A model generated the notes under the pieces. The model had not been told where the DNA came from. It searched no databases and saw only the letters and a list, made by a program, of their open reading frames with translations. From NCBI GenBank assembly GCA_963675665.1, contig OY776510.1, positions 4,704,001 to 4,768,000 of the forward strand: DNA of 64,000 nt. The letters run 5' to 3'. Source of the DNA: Spirochaetia bacterium (lineage in GTDB: Bacteria; Spirochaetota; Spirochaetia; UBA9216). A program made the translations under genes and the position numbers. Shown here in pieces: positions 3,302 through 38,565 of the stretch; the stretch's first letter is position 1; each line of letters begins with the position of its first letter.

Positions 3302-4339
3302 TTATTTTTTTTGTACATATTTTTGTGCATCTATTGCTACAGCAAAAATGACGATTGCACCTTTGATGATATAGAGCATGTAGGGGCTGATGCTTATATA
3401 AACCAGTCCGTAATTTATAACCTGGAAGATAAGTACGCCGGTAACAATACCTGAAATAGACCCCACACCTCCCATCAGTGAAACACCGCCTACAACGCAG
3501 GCTGCTATGGCATCAAGTTCATACCCGTTACCCAGGTTATTCGTGGCGCTGCCGGTCCTTGCAGCTTCCAGCGCACCTGCAAATCCATACAGTAAACCGG
3601 CAATAAGATAGATTAAAATAATATTTTTATTGATATTTACACCTGAAACTTCAGCAGCCTCGCTGTTACCGCCAATTGCAAACATATTTCTGCCCAGTTT
3701 TGTTTTATTCCAGATAAACCAAACTAATGCCACTGTGATTGCTGCATATATAATAAGATAGGGAATCGTAAATATTCCCAGATCAATTCCCCCCTGGGCA
3801 AACCGGGAAAAGTTTTTATCCAAACCTCCGATTGGAGATGCTCCGCCGACCTCTTCAAAGTATGTTGAAGCTACGCCATAGAGGATCATCATCATTCCAA
3901 GGGTAGCAATAAACGGCGTTACATGAAATTTCGTAACAATAAAACCGCTGATTGTGGAAAATATCCCGCAGATCAAAACCACAAGTAAAATCGGAATTAT
4001 AATCGGCAATTCGGCAAATTGCGGAAAAATAATATTGGGGTTTGCTATATCCTGAAGAGCTGAAGCTGAAATGACGGCAGCAAGCCCAACCATTCTTCCG
4101 ATAGACAGATCACATCCCCCAAGAACAATTATTCCTCCGACTCCAAGAGCCAGAATGATCCTTGTTGAGGCCTGGGTAAGAATAAATTGAAAATTCTTTA
4201 ATGAAAGGAAAGTGCTGTCAACACAGGCTATAACAATAATTAATACTGCAAGAACTATGTAAATAGCATTATTAACCAGAGTTTTTTTTATATTTTCTTT
4301 TTGAAAACTATATCTTATCTTTTCGACAGCTGGTATCAC
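3302..4339 (-). CDS. mglC: Galactoside ABC transporter permease
   Basis: DLSIGR, GRNMFAIGGN.EAAEVSG, YELDAIAACVVGG motifs; operon context. Confidence 0.9.
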   Translation of the reverse strand: MIPAVEKIRYSFQKENIKKTLVNNAIYIVLAVLIIVIACVDSTFLSLKNFQFILTQASTRIILALGVGGIIVLGGCDLSIGRMVGLAAVISASALQDIANPNIIFPQFAELPIIIPILLVVLICGIFSTISGFIVTKFHVTPFIATLGMMMILYGVASTYFEEVGGASPIGGLDKNFSRFAQGGIDLGIFTIPYLIIYAAITVALVWFIWNKTKLGRNMFAIGGNSEAAEVSGVNINKNIILIYLIAGLLYGFAGALEAARTGSATNNLGNGYELDAIAACVVGGVSLMGGVGSISGIVTGVLIFQVINYGLVYISISPYMLYIIKGAIVIFAVAIDAQKYVQKK

Positions 4340-30510: not shown

Positions 30511-31578
30511 ATGAAAATTTTTAAACCGATAATTATAGTTATTGCGGCAGCTGCAGTTCTCATGCTATCAGCGCTGCTTTTTTTTGTGCTCACCGAATAC
30601 CGTCCCGACGACGTTGTTTTACTGAAACCGGTTTACGGTACCGAAGCTGAACCTGTTGCTCCGGGCGGATTGAGAATAATGTCATGGAATATCGGGTATT
30701 GCGGTCTTGATGCGGAAATGGACTTTTTCATGGAAGGCGGAAGCATCATGGAACGTTCACCTCTTGAAAACCAGCGAAAATCACTCGACACAATTATAAA
30801 GAAAATAAACCTTCAGGAACCGGACATTTGTTTTATTCAGGAAATCGATACGGCATCCCGCAGATCATTCAAGGTTGATCAGCTGTATACCGCTATAACA
30901 GGCCTGAAGAAATACGAGGCGCTGCATGCCTTGAATTTTAAAAGTCCGTTTGTTCCGGTGCCCGTAAAAGCACCTATCGGAAAAGTTGAATCGGGAATTG
31001 CAACTTTTTCACGCTTTTCAACCTTTAACGCGGAACGAAGACAATTACCGGGAAGATACAGCTGGCCGGTCAGAATCTTTCATCTGAAACGCTGTGCACT
31101 GCTATGTCAGATTCCTTCTCCTGTTGCCGGGAAAAACTGGTATCTCATCAATATTCATCTCACCGCGTACGGAGACGGCGGCCAGCGGGCAAAACAGCTT
31201 GAGTATCTGAAAAAAGAGATTACCGGATTATATGCTGAAGGCCATTATGTAGTTGTCGGCGGAGACTGGAATTCGCTTTTCCCGGGCGTAACAAAAGATC
31301 AATTCGGCACATACACTACACCTGAAGAATACCTGTTCTGGCTTCAGTCGGTTCCTTCCGACTGGACTCCGGAAAACTGGCAATGGTGTTATGATGCTGA
31401 AGTTCCCACCGCCAGATCACTTGAACAACCGTATAAAGCCGGTGAAAATTTCACCTGTATAATCGACGGCTTTCTCGTGTCGCCGAACCTGAGGGTTGAA
31501 GAGGTAAAAGGAATTGATTTCAGGTTTGAAAATACCGACCACAACCCGGTTGCGATTACGGTCAGTATAAGAGACTAG
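30511..31578 (+). CDS. Membrane-anchored endonuclease/exonuclease/phosphatase-family protein
   Basis: SWNIGY, QEID, NIHL, GGDWN, IDGF, TDH.P. Confidence 0.88.
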   Translation: MKIFKPIIIVIAAAAVLMLSALLFFVLTEYRPDDVVLLKPVYGTEAEPVAPGGLRIMSWNIGYCGLDAEMDFFMEGGSIMERSPLENQRKSLDTIIKKINLQEPDICFIQEIDTASRRSFKVDQLYTAITGLKKYEALHALNFKSPFVPVPVKAPIGKVESGIATFSRFSTFNAERRQLPGRYSWPVRIFHLKRCALLCQIPSPVAGKNWYLINIHLTAYGDGGQRAKQLEYLKKEITGLYAEGHYVVVGGDWNSLFPGVTKDQFGTYTTPEEYLFWLQSVPSDWTPENWQWCYDAEVPTARSLEQPYKAGENFTCIIDGFLVSPNLRVEEVKGIDFRFENTDHNPVAITVSIRD

Positions 31579-32894
31579 TTTTTCATTGTAAGCGGCATTC
31601 GGGTCGTCTGAAGAACATCCCTCCACAAACTTCCTTCCGGATCAACGAAATTTCGTTTGGAAACCGCCATTTTCATTGGAACCATTACAAATTTATCGTT
31701 CATCATTGATATAAGGGCTTTTGTTTTACCCGCCATGGCGGCATGCACGGCATTGTTCCCAAGCCTGAGGCAATAGATGGAATCATTTGGATCGGCCGGT
31801 GTAGAACGAATCAGGTAACTGGGATCAATATACTTAAGATGCATCTCGATTCCTTCCTTCTCAAAATAGTCGATAATCCGGTCCTGAAGATACTGACCGA
31901 TGTTCTGCAGTTTCTTGTTGCCCGACAGATCAGTTTCATTACTCTTTTCAAGAAATTCCTGCCCTGCTCCTTCGGCTACAATTATTACAGCACGGTGTTT
32001 TTCCATAATTCTTTTTTTAAGCTGATTCAAAAGTCCTTTCTCGCCCTCAAGATCAAACGGAATTTCCGGAATCAGTACAAAATTCACAACGCTCATCGCA
32101 AGCGCCGTATTGGCCGCAATAAATCCGCTCTCCCGACCCATCAGTTTAACAAGACCGATACCGTTATACGCATCTTTTGCTTCCACATGTGCCCCGGCTA
32201 CAGCTTCCACAGCCTTGGAAACGGCTGTCTCGAACCCGAAAGAACGTTGAATAAAGCTGAGATCATTATCTATTGTCTTGGGTATTCCGATTACCGCAAC
32301 TTTCAGGTTTCGTTTTTCAATTTCTTCGGCAATAGCAAGAGCGCCTTTTGTGGTTCCGTCTCCTCCAATTGTAAAAAGCATATTAAGGTTCAGCCGCTCA
32401 ATAGCGTCGACGAATTCGGATATCTGTCCCCCGCCGCGGGATGAACCAAGCATGGTTCCGCCCATATAATGTATATCATCAACAACATCCGGATTTAACT
32501 CCTTGGTAGGAAGATTGTATTCCGGAAGCAACCCCCTGTAACCGTTTCTGATTCCGGTAATGCGTCTTACCCCGTACTGGTACCACAGTGTTCTGACAAT
32601 AGACCTGATAACGTTGTTCAGCCCGGGACAAAGACCTCCGCAGGTAACTATTCCGGCATGCACATGTCCGGGGTTAAAATAGATTTTACCCCGCGGGCCG
32701 GCTTTCTGAAGACAAAAACTCGAATCTGCTTTTGGAAGATCAGTACCCTTTCTTACTTCAACATCATAAAGTATATATTCATCATCCCGAACGTAATTAA
32801 CAATCTTGTCGCCATAGGTTTTCGACATCTGTATCGGCGAATCAATCCTGGGCTCTCCCAGTGAAGATACTTCAAAATCATATTTTTTAGCCAT
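31575..32894 (-). CDS. pfkA: ATP-dependent 6-phosphofructokinase (group X)
   Basis: TCGGLCPG, GGDG, PKTIDND, MGR, DPSY. Confidence 0.93.
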   Translation of the reverse strand: MAKKYDFEVSSLGEPRIDSPIQMSKTYGDKIVNYVRDDEYILYDVEVRKGTDLPKADSSFCLQKAGPRGKIYFNPGHVHAGIVTCGGLCPGLNNVIRSIVRTLWYQYGVRRITGIRNGYRGLLPEYNLPTKELNPDVVDDIHYMGGTMLGSSRGGGQISEFVDAIERLNLNMLFTIGGDGTTKGALAIAEEIEKRNLKVAVIGIPKTIDNDLSFIQRSFGFETAVSKAVEAVAGAHVEAKDAYNGIGLVKLMGRESGFIAANTALAMSVVNFVLIPEIPFDLEGEKGLLNQLKKRIMEKHRAVIIVAEGAGQEFLEKSNETDLSGNKKLQNIGQYLQDRIIDYFEKEGIEMHLKYIDPSYLIRSTPADPNDSIYCLRLGNNAVHAAMAGKTKALISMMNDKFVMVPMKMAVSKRNFVDPEGSLWRDVLQTTRMPLTMKN

Positions 32895-33045: not shown

Positions 33046-33567
33046 ATGAAAAAAAGTAAATGGATAATCCTGTCTCTTTTAGTCTTTCTGGCTGCAGGAT
33101 GCGATCTTTTTGATCCTGCAAGGAATGTATACGAAAGCCATATTCTGGACATTATTGACTATCTGCAACGGATGGAATATGAAGTCAGGGTAAATAATAT
33201 CGGTGATGATCCCCCTGAAAGCGCCACCTTGTGGCAGAAAGATTCATCCATCCGGGAGGATAATATAAAACTGGAATACAGCAATCTTTCCATAACCGAT
33301 TTAGCATATGATGCAACGGTCACCTGCTTTGAATCTCTGTGCCAGTCGCCGGTGTTTTCTATTTCGGGCGAAATGGAGTTTTCCTATAATGCCTCCGACA
33401 ATGAACATAAAGTTATTAGCGGAACTTTTACCATTAAGGATTCTGATCCGCAAAAGATGCCCATAACCGAATTGACTCTTGAAATTGATCTTGTTCAATC
33501 ATGGGCATCAGGAACTGCAACTGCAAACGGAAAAGAGTTCATTCTTGAAGAAGATTCTATCCGCTGA
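33046..33567 (+). CDS. Hypothetical lipoprotein
   Basis: Lipobox AAGC; SD GGAG. Confidence 0.75.
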   Translation: MKKSKWIILSLLVFLAAGCDLFDPARNVYESHILDIIDYLQRMEYEVRVNNIGDDPPESATLWQKDSSIREDNIKLEYSNLSITDLAYDATVTCFESLCQSPVFSISGEMEFSYNASDNEHKVISGTFTIKDSDPQKMPITELTLEIDLVQSWASGTATANGKEFILEEDSIR

Positions 33568-33576
33568 CTGCAACAG

Positions 33577-34884
33577 TCAGTTTACGCTGCTTGCGAGAAA
33601 CTCGGTTACCCTCCGGGCAATTGAAGAATAAATATCCGCGCGTTTCGAGTCGTCCGTTTCAAGAAGCGTAAACCTGAACCCCTTGAGTTCCGAACAGAAC
33701 CCGGTAAGAGGAACAACACAAATACCCTCGGCACCCAGAAGATAATAGACAAACCTTTTATCAAGCGGCATTCCTTTGGTAATCTGCTCAATATATGCTT
33801 TTATCCGGGGTTCCGGAATTTCAAGTTTCTGGTCCTCGTTCAATACACCGTCTTCAAAAAGAACAGTAAAATACAAAGCGCCCTGCGGCATGATTACATT
33901 GATACCGGGAATATTCTTCATAATATTAAAAGCTTCGCATGCCCGCGATGCAAGTATCAACGATTGGCGGCTGAGATGCTCCGCATAACGCGGATCACCC
34001 ATTATCAGCGGGATCGAGAGCTGCGGCAGTGTTGTTGAACATACTTCAAGCCTCTTGGCGTTTATCAGGCTGTTTATATAGGTGTTAAACTCTTCGTCCT
34101 TTTCGCGGTTATAAACTTCAATCCAGCCGCAGCGGGCTCCCGGCCAGGGATACTCCTTACTGACAGATTTCATTGATATTGCCGGAACGTCTCCGATTAC
34201 TTCGTTAATATAGGTGAAATTTACCCCGGGAAACACAACATTGCAGTATGTTTCATCTGCAATAATAAAAAGATCATGCTCGGCAGCTATATCGACTATC
34301 TGGTGTAAAACCTCCCTTGAATAAACAATACCGGTTGGATTATCGGGGTTAATAAGAAGGATCCCGGCAATCGAATCATTATATCTGACTTTATTGCGCA
34401 AATCTTCAATATCGGGAAGCCAGTTGTTTTCCGGATCAAGTGTGTATGTAAGATGTTCATAACCGGAATGCGCAGCTTCCGCCGAAGAATGTGTCGAATA
34501 TGCCGGCGAAGGTCCGATTATTCGGGCTTCCCTTTTCAAAAACCCGAAAATCTTGGCGACGGCGTCTCCGAGCCCGTTAAAAAATATAATATCGTCTGCC
34601 GAGGCCCTGGCCCCCTTCCGGGTCCCGAGCTGCGAAGACAGGAATTCCCTTGTGCCGACATCACCCTGACTGTCGGTATAACGATAACTCGCATCTTCGG
34701 CGGCCAGTCCGATAATAATCTCTTTCATCCACGGCTCCAGCTCCGCGCCTTTCTCTACCGGGTCGCCTATATTTTCCCATTTGATTTCTCTGCCGAGTTC
34801 CGAGATTTTATGAGCTATGCTCACAATCTGGCGGATCTCATAGGTAAGCTGCCTGGCCCCTAAATGTACAATTTCACGTCTCAT
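33577..34884 (-). CDS. alaA: PLP-dependent class I/II aminotransferase, AlaA-like (probable alanine-synthesising transaminase)
   Basis: YEIR...ENIGDP N-terminus, INPDNPTG, ADETY, SVSK...PGARCGW; SD GGAGGAG before ATG 34884; Ala-rich leader upstream. Confidence 0.7.
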   Translation of the reverse strand: MRREIVHLGARQLTYEIRQIVSIAHKISELGREIKWENIGDPVEKGAELEPWMKEIIIGLAAEDASYRYTDSQGDVGTREFLSSQLGTRKGARASADDIIFFNGLGDAVAKIFGFLKREARIIGPSPAYSTHSSAEAAHSGYEHLTYTLDPENNWLPDIEDLRNKVRYNDSIAGILLINPDNPTGIVYSREVLHQIVDIAAEHDLFIIADETYCNVVFPGVNFTYINEVIGDVPAISMKSVSKEYPWPGARCGWIEVYNREKDEEFNTYINSLINAKRLEVCSTTLPQLSIPLIMGDPRYAEHLSRQSLILASRACEAFNIMKNIPGINVIMPQGALYFTVLFEDGVLNEDQKLEIPEPRIKAYIEQITKGMPLDKRFVYYLLGAEGICVVPLTGFCSELKGFRFTLLETDDSKRADIYSSIARRVTEFLASSVN

Positions 34885-34912
34885 TTTCTCCTCCGTTTGT
34901 TGCAGCTGTAAT

Positions 34913-34946
34913 AAAAAAACCGGCAAAGCCTGAAGACCTGCCGGTT
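34913..34946 (-). terminator. Attenuator terminator (E:F) in the aminotransferase leader
   Basis: AACCGGCAGGUC-UUCA-GGCUUUGCCGGUU then a U-tract (U7 in total), ending about 30 nt before the start codon. Confidence 0.85.
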
Positions 34947-34995
34947 ATAATTCGAACATGTTACCGCAAGTCGCCAGACGACTGCGGCATTTTTT

Positions 34996-35076
34996 TCAGG
35001 AAAGACACAACGCCGCAGTCAATATTGCTGCTGCTGCCGCGGCGGTTGTTATTTTGCTGTCAATCCTTCTGTACAT
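34996..35076 (-). CDS. Ala-rich leader peptide MYRRIDSKITTAAAAAAILTAALCLS (26 aa)
   Basis: ATG 35076 to TGA 34996; GCC GCG GCA GCA GCA GCA run plus GCG GCG; embedded in alternative hairpins. Confidence 0.8.
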   Translation of the reverse strand: MYRRIDSKITTAAAAAAILTAALCLS

Positions 35077-35082
35077 GCAATA

Positions 35083-35111
35083 AAATTATCGGCCAATTCT
35101 TTTTTTGTCAA
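35083..35111 (-). promoter_or_regulatory. Promoter of the leader-peptide/aminotransferase transcript; predicted +1 at the leader AUG
   Basis: TTGACA-N17-TAATTT-N6-ATG; no SD. Confidence 0.7.
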
Positions 35112-35153
35112 GATGATCTTGCCAAAATCTCCCATATGATACTATTATTCAAT

Positions 35154-36263
35154 ATGCGCCCGCGTATCGTCAAAAACCTTTCAGCACTTTTTTTATTTAC
35201 AGTCACGATTACCGTGTCCGCCGCCGGACAAGACAGCAACACCGGCAGTACAGCATTGTTTATTGATTCGAACCCGATAAACGCTTTAATTATTATGGAC
35301 GGAGAGCCCCTGCTTCAACAGACTCCCGCTCTTGTCCGGAACCTTTCGCCGGGAGAACATATTATCGGAATTCGCAAAGACGGATATTCGCCTGAAGACG
35401 CAACAGTAAATCTTGAAGCAGGAATGACGGAGATTATCAAAGCGGAATTATCCCGCGGCACAATACTGGTAAATCTGCCGGACGAAAATTCTGTTTATCT
35501 CCAATCAGAGAGCATCGGGAATGTTCCCGAAGTATTCAGAATTCCCGAAGGCACCTATAATTTCCTGAAAAAAGAAGACGGATTATATATTAAGCCTGTT
35601 TATCCGAAAACCCGACTGCTGACAGTTACCGGCACGCTGTTTTTTGCGGCGCTGGCAATTAATACCGTATCAATTGCTATGGAACTTAACAGCAACGGAG
35701 AGTTGTTCCTGCCGCATTCCGACAGACTTATTATCACTGAAGCCGCCGCCGCAGTCTCCGGCCTGGCGGAACTGGCCATGCTGATTGACAAAAGATCTTT
35801 TATCAGCGATTTTGAGTTGCATCAGGCAGATTTGAAAAACCTTGAATCGGAAGCGGAAAAGATTTTCCAGACTTCCCAGCGGTCGTTGTCCTCCGGAAAG
35901 CTTGAGGACGCTCTTTCAGGTTTCAGCAGCCTCGTAAGCAGTTACCCGGATTCGCCCAGATTCTCCGAATCTTTATACAAGATTGCCAAAATTCACAGTA
36001 TTTCCGGAGATACAAACCTTGCAATATCGGAACTGAATATTATTATCGACCGTTTTCCTGATGCAGAGATCTACGACAGTGCCTGCCAGACGCTTGCGCT
36101 TTTGTATTCCAACTCCGGCAACCCTCAGGCCGCGGAAGAAATTGTAGGAAAGATGGTCTTCCTCAATTCGATTTTTTCCGAAACGGAAAAAGAGATTGAA
36201 GAACTCGGAATTGAAAAGGTAATTGAAAACTGGGCAAGAAATCCGGAAGGACGTACCGAATGA
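35154..36263 (+). CDS. PEGA-domain and TPR (BamD/YfiO-like) membrane protein
   Basis: IDSNP.NA....DG....TP...L.PG.H...K.GY PEGA motif; YPDSP..ESLY TPR region; start reassigned. Confidence 0.8.
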   Translation: MRPRIVKNLSALFLFTVTITVSAAGQDSNTGSTALFIDSNPINALIIMDGEPLLQQTPALVRNLSPGEHIIGIRKDGYSPEDATVNLEAGMTEIIKAELSRGTILVNLPDENSVYLQSESIGNVPEVFRIPEGTYNFLKKEDGLYIKPVYPKTRLLTVTGTLFFAALAINTVSIAMELNSNGELFLPHSDRLIITEAAAAVSGLAELAMLIDKRSFISDFELHQADLKNLESEAEKIFQTSQRSLSSGKLEDALSGFSSLVSSYPDSPRFSESLYKIAKIHSISGDTNLAISELNIIIDRFPDAEIYDSACQTLALLYSNSGNPQAAEEIVGKMVFLNSIFSETEKEIEELGIEKVIENWARNPEGRTE

Positions 36264-36906: not shown

Positions 36907-38565
36907 TTATTTTGTTTTCATAATTTCTACGCCGTTCCAGTCTTCCGGAGGAGGATTCTTCAGGTAACGCATGCTGCGTTCAATAAAAACCCCGGACAGA
37001 TAATCATCCGGCATAGTCTTGCCGGCAGCCGAAAAATATCTAACGGCTTTACTGAAATCACGGCTGTAAAAAAGTTTTGCGCCGGCGTTATGATAAGACC
37101 ATCCTTTTTTCTGTTGTTGCGTAAGGTTAACACTCGCAGTGTAGATACTTTCACCCTGCGTTTTTCCTTTTACCTGGACCTTGTCAACCATCCTGCATGG
37201 AATCTGAGTACGGACTTTTCTGTAGACGCTTTCTGAAATAATCAGTTCCTGTTTATACTGCTTTGTAAGACCTTCAAGCCTGGAACCAAGGTTAACCATA
37301 TCTCCGATAACGGTATAATCCATTTTCTTTTCGGAGCCGATATTACCGACTGTTACAACCCCATAGTTTATCCCGATTCCCGTTTTAAACTCGGGTTTTC
37401 CTTCTTCTACACGTTCCCTGTTTAATTTGCCGAGTGTTTCCTGCATTTCAAGCGCAGCCATTACCGATTGGTATGCGTCGTCGTTGTGCTTTACAGGCGC
37501 TCCGAAAAAAGCCATTATCGCATCGCCGATATATTTATCGATTACTCCGCCGCGGTTGATAATGATATCAACCATTTTTTCAAAATACTTGTTAAGATCT
37601 ATAACAAGTTGATCCGGAGAATAACCTTCTGATATTGTTGTAAAACTTCTGATATCAGAAAACAGGATGGACAGAACCCGGTTCTGTCCTACAAGCATTT
37701 CTTCAGGGTTTGTAAAAACGCTGTCGATAACATCCTTGGGAACATACTTCTGAAATATATTTCTAATCTTTCGTTCATTGCGCTCAGCCAGCACGGCCTT
37801 GAAAGCAAATTCCTTGATTTGCTGGTATGCCCGGTTAAGCTCATTAATCATGATATTAAAGGTGTTTGCCAGGTGCCCTATCTCATCGCGGTATTCGACA
37901 TGGACCTGTCTTGAAAGATCATTATCCTTGATGATTCCCTGCATTGCAGTTGAAACCCTGGTCAGGGGGCCGGTTATATATGCGGCAAGTACCAGCAGAA
38001 GAATAAATGATATAAAAATGGATATCCCGAGAATGATATAATTCTGGGTCAGCATTTCAGTGATTTCACGATAAAAGATGGAACTGTCTTCCGAAAGAAA
38101 CACATACCAGTCGAACGCTTCAAAGTAAAACATCTGACCGACTCTTTCACTTCCCTCGAGATTAAAAGATACCCAGCCGGCGCTGTCCCGTGAGAGCATC
38201 CGGTTTAAAGCTTCCAGTTCGCCCTCGGCAAACTGGAAATCCGAAGTCTTCATCCTGACTGAACCTTCGCTGTCGATAGAAAAGATCATCTCGGTTTCGC
38301 TTCTTATAAGCGTAAACGCATAAGAAAGGACTGCTGTTTTGGCAACATCAACATATTCGGGTTTGTCCGAAAAACCGTTGTCAACCAGAAGTGACCACTG
38401 GTTTCCCATATATTTTTCCATCTCTTCAGCTTTAAAACCCAGAGAAGCCATTGCCAGCCTTGTCATTCCTCCGCGGGCTGAATTTGACGCGAAAAAACCG
38501 GTTATGAGAAGGGCCGCCACAATTAACGGCAGAACGATTAGTATTAAACGTGCGCGTATTTTCAT
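36907..38565 (-). CDS. Membrane class III adenylate cyclase (sensor, HAMP, cyclase, TPR-like tail)
   Basis: FSDIRSFT, DKYIGDAIMA, DYTVIGD.VNL.SRLE (K/D specificity for ATP), VKGK. Confidence 0.92.
   Translation of the reverse strand: MKIRARLILIVLPLIVAALLITGFFASNSARGGMTRLAMASLGFKAEEMEKYMGNQWSLLVDNGFSDKPEYVDVAKTAVLSYAFTLIRSETEMIFSIDSEGSVRMKTSDFQFAEGELEALNRMLSRDSAGWVSFNLEGSERVGQMFYFEAFDWYVFLSEDSSIFYREITEMLTQNYIILGISIFISFILLLVLAAYITGPLTRVSTAMQGIIKDNDLSRQVHVEYRDEIGHLANTFNIMINELNRAYQQIKEFAFKAVLAERNERKIRNIFQKYVPKDVIDSVFTNPEEMLVGQNRVLSILFSDIRSFTTISEGYSPDQLVIDLNKYFEKMVDIIINRGGVIDKYIGDAIMAFFGAPVKHNDDAYQSVMAALEMQETLGKLNRERVEEGKPEFKTGIGINYGVVTVGNIGSEKKMDYTVIGDMVNLGSRLEGLTKQYKQELIISESVYRKVRTQIPCRMVDKVQVKGKTQGESIYTASVNLTQQQKKGWSYHNAGAKLFYSRDFSKAVRYFSAAGKTMPDDYLSGVFIERSMRYLKNPPPEDWNGVEIMKTK

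Follow-up and report, generated by a model that had tools for sequence, protein, structure and literature searches.

A conserved leader with a run of alanine codons, likely a ribosome-mediated transcription attenuator, precedes an AlaA-like aminotransferase gene in Spirochaetia

A stretch of 64,000 nucleotides from the genome of a Spirochaetia bacterium (assembly GCA_963675665.1, contig OY776510.1, positions 4,704,001 to 4,768,000; hereafter the window, in whose numbering its features are given) carries on the minus strand a gene for a pyridoxal phosphate (PLP)-dependent, AlaA-like aminotransferase, preceded by a leader that was the subject of this analysis. An earlier reading of the DNA letters (the sequence-only reading) had proposed that this leader is an alanine-sensing attenuator, built from a promoter-adjacent open reading frame (ORF) with a run of Ala codons and from six mutually complementary segments. 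The region 34600–35400 was inspected base by base on the minus strand, and every coordinate of that proposal was reproduced, from the promoter TTGACA-N17-TAATTT and the ATG 6 nt further on to the 26-codon ORF, its Ala codons and the six segments.

The −35 hexamer TTGACA was located at 35106..35111 and the −10 region, GATAATTT, at 35083..35090, 6–8 nt ahead of the AUG. Within the latter, either TAATTT (35088–35083, 17-nt spacer, with 6 nt between it and the ATG at 35076–35074) or GATAAT (35090–35085, a 5/6 match to the consensus with a 15-nt spacer and a start about 2 nt ahead of the AUG) may serve as the hexamer, and either choice would put the transcription start at most about 2 nt from the AUG. 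The ORF opening there (34996..35076, minus strand) comprises 26 codons and a stop and encodes the peptide MYRRIDSKITTAAAAAAILTAALCLS. The ORF is probably leaderless, as a Shine-Dalgarno sequence would not fit ahead of its start codon. Six consecutive Ala codons (GCC GCG GCA GCA GCA GCA, 35026..35043), the putative sensor, overlap the first of the complementary segments, and two further Ala codons (GCG GCG, 35016–35011) fall within the second.

The six segments, all on the minus strand, have the following predicted pairings. Segment A (35037..35049) may pair with B or D when not covered by a ribosome, B (35007..35021) with A or C, C (34979..34991) with B or D, and D (34962..34973) with C or, as an antiterminator, with E. 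Segment E (34935..34946) is the predicted 5′ arm of the terminator, and F (34913..34930) its 3′ arm together with the U7 tract that ends at 34913; the E:F hairpin has a predicted energy of −12.8 kcal/mol and is followed by T7. The segments are GC-rich palindromes with shared CCGCGG/CUGCGG cores, and because of these shared cores several alternative pairings are possible. The minimum-energy fold of 34900–35080 consisted of A:B, C:D and E:F at −64.7 kcal/mol, with a z-score of −3.29; one of 200 dinucleotide shuffles was equally stable. The Shine-Dalgarno sequence of the aminotransferase gene, GGAGGAG (34888..34894), lies 19 nt past the U-tract, outside the switch and in none of the predicted helices. 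As the upstream neighbour (from about 35155, plus strand) is divergent, the hairpin and U-tract are not the terminator of an upstream gene and therefore stand inside a 5′ leader.

A simple consensus scan flagged neither the leader promoter nor the terminator, because TAATTT matches TATAAT at only 3/6 positions and the terminator stem is bulged. The same scan gave a higher score to another minus-strand site, TTGACG-18-AATAAT (35173–35144), which overlaps the 5′ end of the divergent gene. This site was absent from a relative (L002) and the ORF that follows it (MGDFGK...) was not conserved, and it was rejected as a conserved promoter for these reasons. In an Rfam cmscan of 34700–35300 with a threshold of E ≤ 10, the sole match was ArcZ, on the opposite strand at E = 2; no leader family or T-box was matched.

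To determine whether the leader is kept elsewhere, the DNA upstream of orthologues of the aminotransferase gene was collected from two samples of the class. The first consisted of 41 genomes, namely the window's own, its relatives and one per family of the class. An orthologue was present in 16 of them, and all 15 regions with upstream DNA, the window included, carried a short ORF with 4–7 consecutive Ala codons followed by a hairpin and T-run. In the class-wide sample, 67 of 401 genomes had an orthologue. Among 50 further upstream regions from this sample, the Ala-run ORF was found in 35 and a degenerate version (AAAGA) in two more; one further orthologue stood on a contig too short for its upstream region to be read. 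Altogether 50 of 65 upstream regions had the ORF, and these represent 17 GTDB families and 25 genera; a covariance-model match in genome G023, where the gene is split over two contigs, raised the count to 51 of 66 orthologous regions. The 50 class leaders had Ala runs of 4–8 codons in peptides of 16–37 aa, in which Ala made up 27.5% of the residues and the next commonest residue 7.3%. A hairpin and T-run followed in 49 of the 50, and a TTGACN −35 hexamer stood at the equivalent site in 47, with spacers of 16–18 nt. The Ala run, the promoter-adjacent start codon and the terminator were thus conserved upstream of 51 of the 66 class orthologues; conservation of the Ala-codon run and the hairpins was the check that the sequence-only reading had put forward.

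A wider sample comprised 80 orthologue loci on named public contigs from many phyla, several of the spirochaete loci being genomes already in the class samples. Among the 17 loci with titles in Spirochaet-, Treponema or Marispirochaeta, 11 had the Ala-run ORF, three a degenerate one and three no leader. It was found in 0/13 loci titled Leptospir- and in 1/50 from other phyla, the single case being a 55-aa ORF 437 nt upstream that looks like chance. From these proportions the element is, as far as sequence comparison goes, a trait of the class Spirochaetia and not of the enzyme family. One orthologue from outside the spirochaetes (L089, a Geopsychrobacteraceae contig) had, about 212–92 nt upstream, a terminator-like hairpin and an Ala/Thr-rich short ORF, MITTFTQRERVEIMTFLTSKAARATKAATTSLKPVHHPVG; it was the only non-spirochaete orthologue with both, either by chance or as a different leader.

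The reading frame of the Ala run was assessed in 55 unique regions with (GCN)≥4, by locating the longest (GCN)n run and taking the best promoter-like site in the 130 nt ahead of it, with the frame ignored. In 45 of the 55, the promoter-like site was followed 4–9 nt on by ATG or GTG, and in 44 of these 45 this start codon was in frame with the GCN run with no intervening stop. The single exception was the window itself, where a neighbouring, non-conserved site overlapping the start of the divergent gene scored half a point higher. The start codon stood 6–7 nt past the −10 hexamer in 35 of the 47 class leaders with a promoter-like site (6 nt in the window), leaving no space for a Shine-Dalgarno sequence. 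Within the runs, GCC was used 102 times, GCA 90, GCG 86 and GCT 24, so that the third codon position varies and the first two are fixed. The N-terminal halves of the peptides, ahead of the run, were unrelated even within a genus. Given the frame statistics, the varying third positions and the unconserved sequence ahead of the run, this is the pattern that selection on a translated Ala run starting at the transcript 5′ end would leave, not that of a fixed RNA motif or a functional peptide. A chance origin of the feature was ruled out by its conservation together with these statistics; that it is more than chance follows mainly from the conservation, not from the window sequence by itself. Judged by these comparisons, the element is a real, conserved and regulatory one. 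The sequence-only reading had agreed to be given up if the Ala run and hairpins were lost in orthologues, and on every point of this kind that computation could address the outcome was in its favour.

That reading had further proposed that a shortage of Ala-tRNA stalls the ribosome on segment A and gives B:C plus D:E. To model the ribosome, 28 nt around each A-site codon were blocked and the pairing probabilities computed. In the free RNA the window terminator had a probability of 0.89. With the A site on codons 6–15, which include the first four Ala codons, the probability was 0.1 or less; it was 0.3 at codon 16 and about 0.9 at codons 17–26. The predicted fold therefore switched with the ribosome on the Ala codons, B:C (12 bp) and D:E replacing A:B, C:D and E:F exactly as had been proposed. 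For the 5′ arm of the window terminator, leader nt 104–114, corresponding to segment D, gave the best pairing, at −11.5 kcal/mol.

Within the window's own family of eight sequences, GACUGCGG in segment B was invariant (8/8). At one position of segment E the window has A and its relatives G; in segment D the window has U and they have C, and the partner in F is U or C. Taken at the level of sequence, the A/G and U/C change is compensatory and supports D:E as well as E:F. RNAalifold applied to six members of the family yielded A:D enclosing B:C, another fold compatible with the terminator. Two same-genus relatives (L004:388-562 and L005:2801-2975) had an extra small hairpin, GAAGAC...GUCUU, between C and D, which lengthens the C:D element. 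These two were misaligned in the MAFFT alignments of the family, in which the pair counts consequently understate the pairing.

The six-segment, his-like layout was peculiar to this family. Most relatives had four segments in a trp-like arrangement, the antiterminator strand ending at the leader stop codon, and the his-like architecture claimed in the sequence-only reading thus holds for the window's family only. In 38 of 54 unique leaders, the sequence that separates the Ala run from the terminator was more complementary to the terminator 5′ arm than 95% of dinucleotide shuffles; the median z was −2.9. In 31 of the 54 the antiterminator strand had its 3′ end no more than 5 nt from the stop codon's first base (exactly on it in 18), and in nine it ended 12–21 nt past the stop codon. 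For most lineages, this geometry suggests that a ribosome stalled on the Ala run would leave the antiterminator strand free and that a ribosome at the stop codon would cover it. Conserved C-termini of the peptides (IREDRG in the Treponema-type leaders, GIAG in another clade) coincided exactly with the antiterminator strand, and their conservation is explained by that strand being read as codons.

Pairing also co-varied between lineages. For 27 representatives, antiterminator strands and terminator arms of the same lineage paired at −17.6 kcal/mol, compared with −14.1 kcal/mol for cross-lineage pairs, and none of 10000 permutations was as good. The antiterminator complementarity was therefore both kept and co-varying, as the check on hairpin conservation and covariation suggested in the sequence-only reading had called for. 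In a 13-sequence clade, 93.7% of the cells of the antiterminator helix were paired, against 35–51% in slid registers. This helix showed no double compensatory change, being too conserved to do so. Compensatory changes were seen in the terminator and in the 1:2 hairpin, which forms between the antiterminator strand and the end of the run.

As an internal control, sister leaders were sought by scanning the window's 5.15-Mb genome (43% G+C) for a −35/−10 pair with a start codon 5–8 nt on, an ORF of 8–66 codons and a hairpin with T5 within 170 nt. The scan returned 10 hits at nine distinct start sites, three of which had amino-acid runs: the Ala leader, a Val-rich leader and an Ile/Leu-rich leader. 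The Val-rich ORF, MKNPASVLVSAVVNILNILVEVAVVVAVVVVDRRRFVAG, has 39 codons (G000:C1, plus strand, 96346; L147, from base 147), a promoter 6 nt upstream and a hairpin with T-run. The genes past it are ilvB-ilvN, for the large and small subunits of acetolactate synthase (L147:346-2055 and 2131-2616), and the leader is a probable Val-sensing attenuator of leaderless appearance. The Ile/Leu-rich ORF, MKRPVSGKSIISILSIIILLNKHTMRED, has 28 codons and a terminator (G000:C1, minus strand, 3231561; L148, about base 3962, minus strand) and precedes a second ilvB-ilvN pair and leuA (L148:1964-3712, 1346-1942 and 3-1343). It too looks leaderless and is a probable attenuator, sensing Ile/Leu. A lineage that pairs leaderless, codon-biased leaders with matching biosynthetic genes makes the Ala case much more credible.

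Further targets were looked for with a covariance model, R1, built from the 13-sequence clade and searched over 151 class genomes. The model also touched the terminator of the MKRPVSGKSIISILSIIILLNKHTMRED leader (E 0.005). From 37 matches not already placed ahead of the aminotransferase gene, 13 were inspected. Some stood at the same aminotransferase gene (a second copy in G145, and G023), others were branched-chain-type leaders, and the rest were plain terminators behind tRNAs or other genes. No second target of the Ala leader was seen among these 13 of 37 matches in the 151 genomes, which is weak evidence of absence as the model is biased towards its clade. In another family of the class, two loci (L178, G054:C1:121851-121935, minus strand, and L183, G018:C1:215545-215629, plus strand) had, next to a promoter, the ORF M(T/S)FVIISLISVLVIIIGASAPQGEIA with a terminator behind it. 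This ORF is Ile/Val/Leu-rich and apparently leaderless and looks like a branched-chain leader.

The putatively regulated gene (33577..34884, minus strand, ATG at 34884) encodes a protein of 435 aa that matched NCBIfam PRK06855, ‘PLP-dependent aminotransferase’, with 647.5 bits against a cut-off of 443, as well as Pfam Aminotran_1_2. The nearest solved structures were the Escherichia coli glutamate-pyruvate aminotransferase AlaA (4cvq, 6e-38) and a Pyrococcus transaminase (1xi9). The latter is titled ‘putative transaminase’ in the Protein Data Bank (PDB), and the name of PRK06855 gives no substrate. On the basis of this homology together with the leader codons, the enzyme probably makes alanine from pyruvate. 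The gene is monocistronic, since a convergent plus-strand ORF (33046–33567) comes next. That ORF encodes 173 aa with a lipoprotein-like N-terminus. A 7-bp hairpin (CUGACUG uug CAGUCAG, 33556–33575) with no minus-strand T-run directly follows the stop codon of the aminotransferase gene and falls within the final codons of that convergent ORF. On the other side, divergent from the leader, 35155–36263 (plus strand) encodes a PEGA-domain/TPR protein with a signal-peptide-like start. Further out, the minus strand carries genes for a HAMP-adenylate/guanylate cyclase (36907–38565) and an ATP-dependent 6-phosphofructokinase (31575–32894).

Taken together, the leader was judged very likely to be a ribosome-mediated, probably leaderless, alanine-sensing transcription attenuator of the AlaA-like aminotransferase gene. 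The quantity sensed would be the supply of charged tRNA-Ala, and the target this one gene. Transcription would start at, or within about 2 nt of, the AUG, and the ORF would be translated as a leaderless mRNA. With Ala-tRNA plentiful, the ribosome would pass the six Ala codons and segment B and reach the stop codon, C:D and E:F would form, and transcription would terminate at the U7 tract. An untranslated leader would also terminate, through A:B or A:D, then C:D or B:C, then E:F. With Ala-tRNA scarce, the ribosome would stall when one of the first Ala codons enters its A site, covering A and leaving B free. B would pair with C, D would be free to pair with E as E emerges, and with F unpaired the polymerase would read through. 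Most relatives would use a shorter version, consisting of the Ala run, an antiterminator strand ending at the stop codon, and the terminator.

Several observations weigh against this attenuator model. Equilibrium folding of 56 leaders gave a median terminator probability of 0.94 with the ribosome on the Ala codons and 0.97 for the free RNA; the switch appeared under masking only in the window and a minority of relatives. As equilibrium folding leaves the terminator intact in most relatives, the model needs the antiterminator to form before the terminator 3′ arm is made. Classical attenuators likewise depend on kinetics. As a kinetic proxy, sequestration of the 5′ arm was computed in transcripts truncated ahead of the terminator 3′ arm, and the contrast was modest, with a mean of 0.88 (maximum 0.97) for ribosome positions on the Ala run, compared with 0.75 in free RNA and 0.81 for a ribosome at the stop codon. 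Neither calculation is decisive for the relatives. In the window's family, the D:E complementarities were individually weak (z −0.5 to −1.9), and the covariation there comes from eight sequences only. In the window, a ribosome on the stop codon masked part of C and favoured D:E (terminator probability 0.04), so that termination under alanine sufficiency would require prompt release of the ribosome, and a stall at the two Ala codons inside B would favour termination. The element was absent from 15 of the 66 orthologues. Besides this enzyme, the genome encodes about 12 other class I/II aminotransferases and, scoring above the family cut-off, two alanine dehydrogenases.

Three other explanations were weighed. 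The leader could be a structured RNA with direct sensing of a ligand, as a riboswitch, or of a protein, as a protein-binding attenuator, the ORF being incidental and untranslated. The GC-rich CCGCGG/CUGCGG palindromes could make such a fold, terminator/antiterminator pairs also serve as riboswitch expression platforms, and translation of the ORF is itself deduced from sequence. The frame argues against this explanation: promoter-adjacent start codons were in frame with the GCN run and open to it in 44 of 45 regions, the run is variable at third codon positions but fixed at positions 1 and 2, the sequence between start codon and run is not conserved, and the antiterminator strand ends in most lineages at a stop codon that is meaningful only if a ribosome reads the frame. 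With Rfam silent at E ≤ 10 save for the opposite-strand ArcZ match, and two sister elements with Val and Ile/Leu runs ahead of ilv genes in the same genome, a structured RNA was considered very unlikely. A functional role for the peptide, as a hydrophobic micropeptide, or a role for the hairpin and U-tract as an insulator from the promoter region of the divergent gene, would remove regulation altogether. The core of the peptide is indeed hydrophobic (Ala/Ile/Leu), and intergenic terminators are common. However, neither the length (16–37 aa) nor the sequence beyond the Ala run is conserved, C-terminal motifs such as IREDRG fall precisely on the strand complementary to the terminator arm, and the divergent orientation of the neighbour leaves no co-directional upstream gene in need of a terminator; such roles can hardly be credited.

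A closer relative of the attenuator model is a translated leader that does control the terminator but reports general translation stress, such as antibiotics or global starvation, in the manner of the whiB7 or erm leaders. Whatever delays the ribosome over roughly the first 15 codons would release B, as the terminator probability was low from codon 6, and the whiB7 upstream ORF (uORF) answers shortages of many amino acids according to the accessible part of its report (PMC10274678). Against this, the only peptide feature kept over 17 families was the unbroken run of 4–8 Ala, the target is an AlaA-like aminotransferase and no resistance or stress gene, and in the R1 search of 151 class genomes the element was seen only ahead of the aminotransferase gene among the matches placed or inspected (13 of 37 unplaced ones). 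A general-stress leader was therefore regarded as unlikely, and alanine-specific attenuation was retained as the preferred interpretation.

The known systems closest in plan are the leader-peptide transcription attenuators of enterobacteria, his (hisL), trpL, leuL, thrL, pheL and ilvL/ivbL. The amino acids sensed in the textbook set are Trp, His, Leu, Ile/Val, Thr and Phe, and alanine is not among them. Like the hisL/trpL class, the Spirochaetia leader has a short ORF that repeats the codons of one amino acid in a row, a predicted intrinsic terminator ahead of the structural gene, hairpins predicted to be mutually exclusive according to ribosome position, and a putatively sensed amino acid that matches the likely gene product; its six segments in the window's family recall his, and the four in most relatives trp. 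It differs in that the amino acid putatively sensed is alanine, in having a single transaminase gene and no pathway operon as its target, in an ORF that is apparently leaderless (AUG 6–7 nt past the −10, no Shine-Dalgarno sequence), in its host class, and in that the palindrome through which it would pair, the GC-rich GCCGCGGC, is made of the GCN sensor codons themselves. It resembles none of the Rfam leader families (such as His_leader, Trp_leader, Leu_leader and Thr_leader) in sequence or by covariance model. A T-box with an Ala specifier also senses charging of tRNA-Ala and controls a terminator/antiterminator pair, doing so through direct binding of the uncharged tRNA, for which it needs a specifier loop and the T-box sequence in a leader of about 200 nt. 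The present leader, unlike a T-box, is about 165 nt long, is built around a putatively translated ORF and had no Rfam T-box match.

Two mycobacterial systems come nearer in their codons or in their leaderless start. In the accessible text of its report (PMC10274678), the whiB7 uORF is Ala-enriched and called an ‘Ala leader’ by its authors, and it feeds back on the alanine aminotransferase AspC. As proposed for the leader in the window, a Rho-independent terminator and antiterminator come after an Ala-enriched uORF, read-through is induced by alanine starvation, and an alanine aminotransferase is the final beneficiary. In contrast to the window leader, the whiB7 uORF as described there is longer, of mixed composition and without a strict Ala run, and it answers many amino acids as well as antibiotics. 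It controls a transcription factor that activates aspC, whereas the Ala-run leader stands directly ahead of the aminotransferase gene; the two are from different phyla and share no sequence relationship. The statement in the sequence-only reading that no Ala-codon attenuator was known must accordingly be qualified in view of the whiB7 ‘Ala leader’; no Ala-run leader acting directly was found in the full-text searches described below. The leaderless polycysteine short ORFs that make up the mycobacterial ‘Cys ribulon’ likewise have consecutive codons of one amino acid ahead of genes for the metabolism of that amino acid, and ribosome stalling remodels the RNA structure downstream, as proposed here, according to the accessible part of the report (10.1101/834739). 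There the effect is on the downstream ribosome-binding site and not on a terminator. In the Spirochaetia leader the amino acid and the phylum differ, and because the hairpin and U-tract terminator is conserved and the Shine-Dalgarno sequence lies outside the structure, control would be transcriptional rather than by unmasking of a ribosome-binding site.

Full-text literature searches, in whose coverage subscription journals are mostly missing and which are no proof of absence, found no Ala-run leader directly controlling an aminotransferase and no leader-peptide attenuation in spirochaetes. By term search, the accessible text of Naville and Gautheret 2010 (PMC2965389) mentioned neither alanine nor spirochaetes. 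An ‘alanine leader peptide’ in a Treponema pallidum paper (PMC9200625) proved, in the accessible text, to refer to the glycine-alanine secretion leaders of bacteriocins and is unrelated.

What is new here would be the amino-acid specificity, the host group and a functional hint for an enzyme family; the concept of attenuation is unchanged, and the mechanism would be that of the trp/his class. We think it likely that Spirochaetia possess a class-wide set of leaderless leader-peptide attenuators for Ala, Val and Ile/Leu, and that the Ala member is the first direct Ala-codon attenuator of an alanine-forming transaminase, with sensor codons that double as the GC stem GCCGCGGC. Sensor and switch would then be the same nucleotides. 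If this is correct, alanine would join the amino acids that are gauged through the ribosome, and the leader, at about 165 nt, could serve as a compact, natural sensor of alanine. It would also provide a regulatory argument for an alanine aminotransferase function of the uncharacterised PRK06855 family. Free-living spirochaetes would gauge alanine via tRNA charging and, with the Val and Ile/Leu leaders of the same genome, leaderless leader peptides would be a general regulatory device in Spirochaetia.

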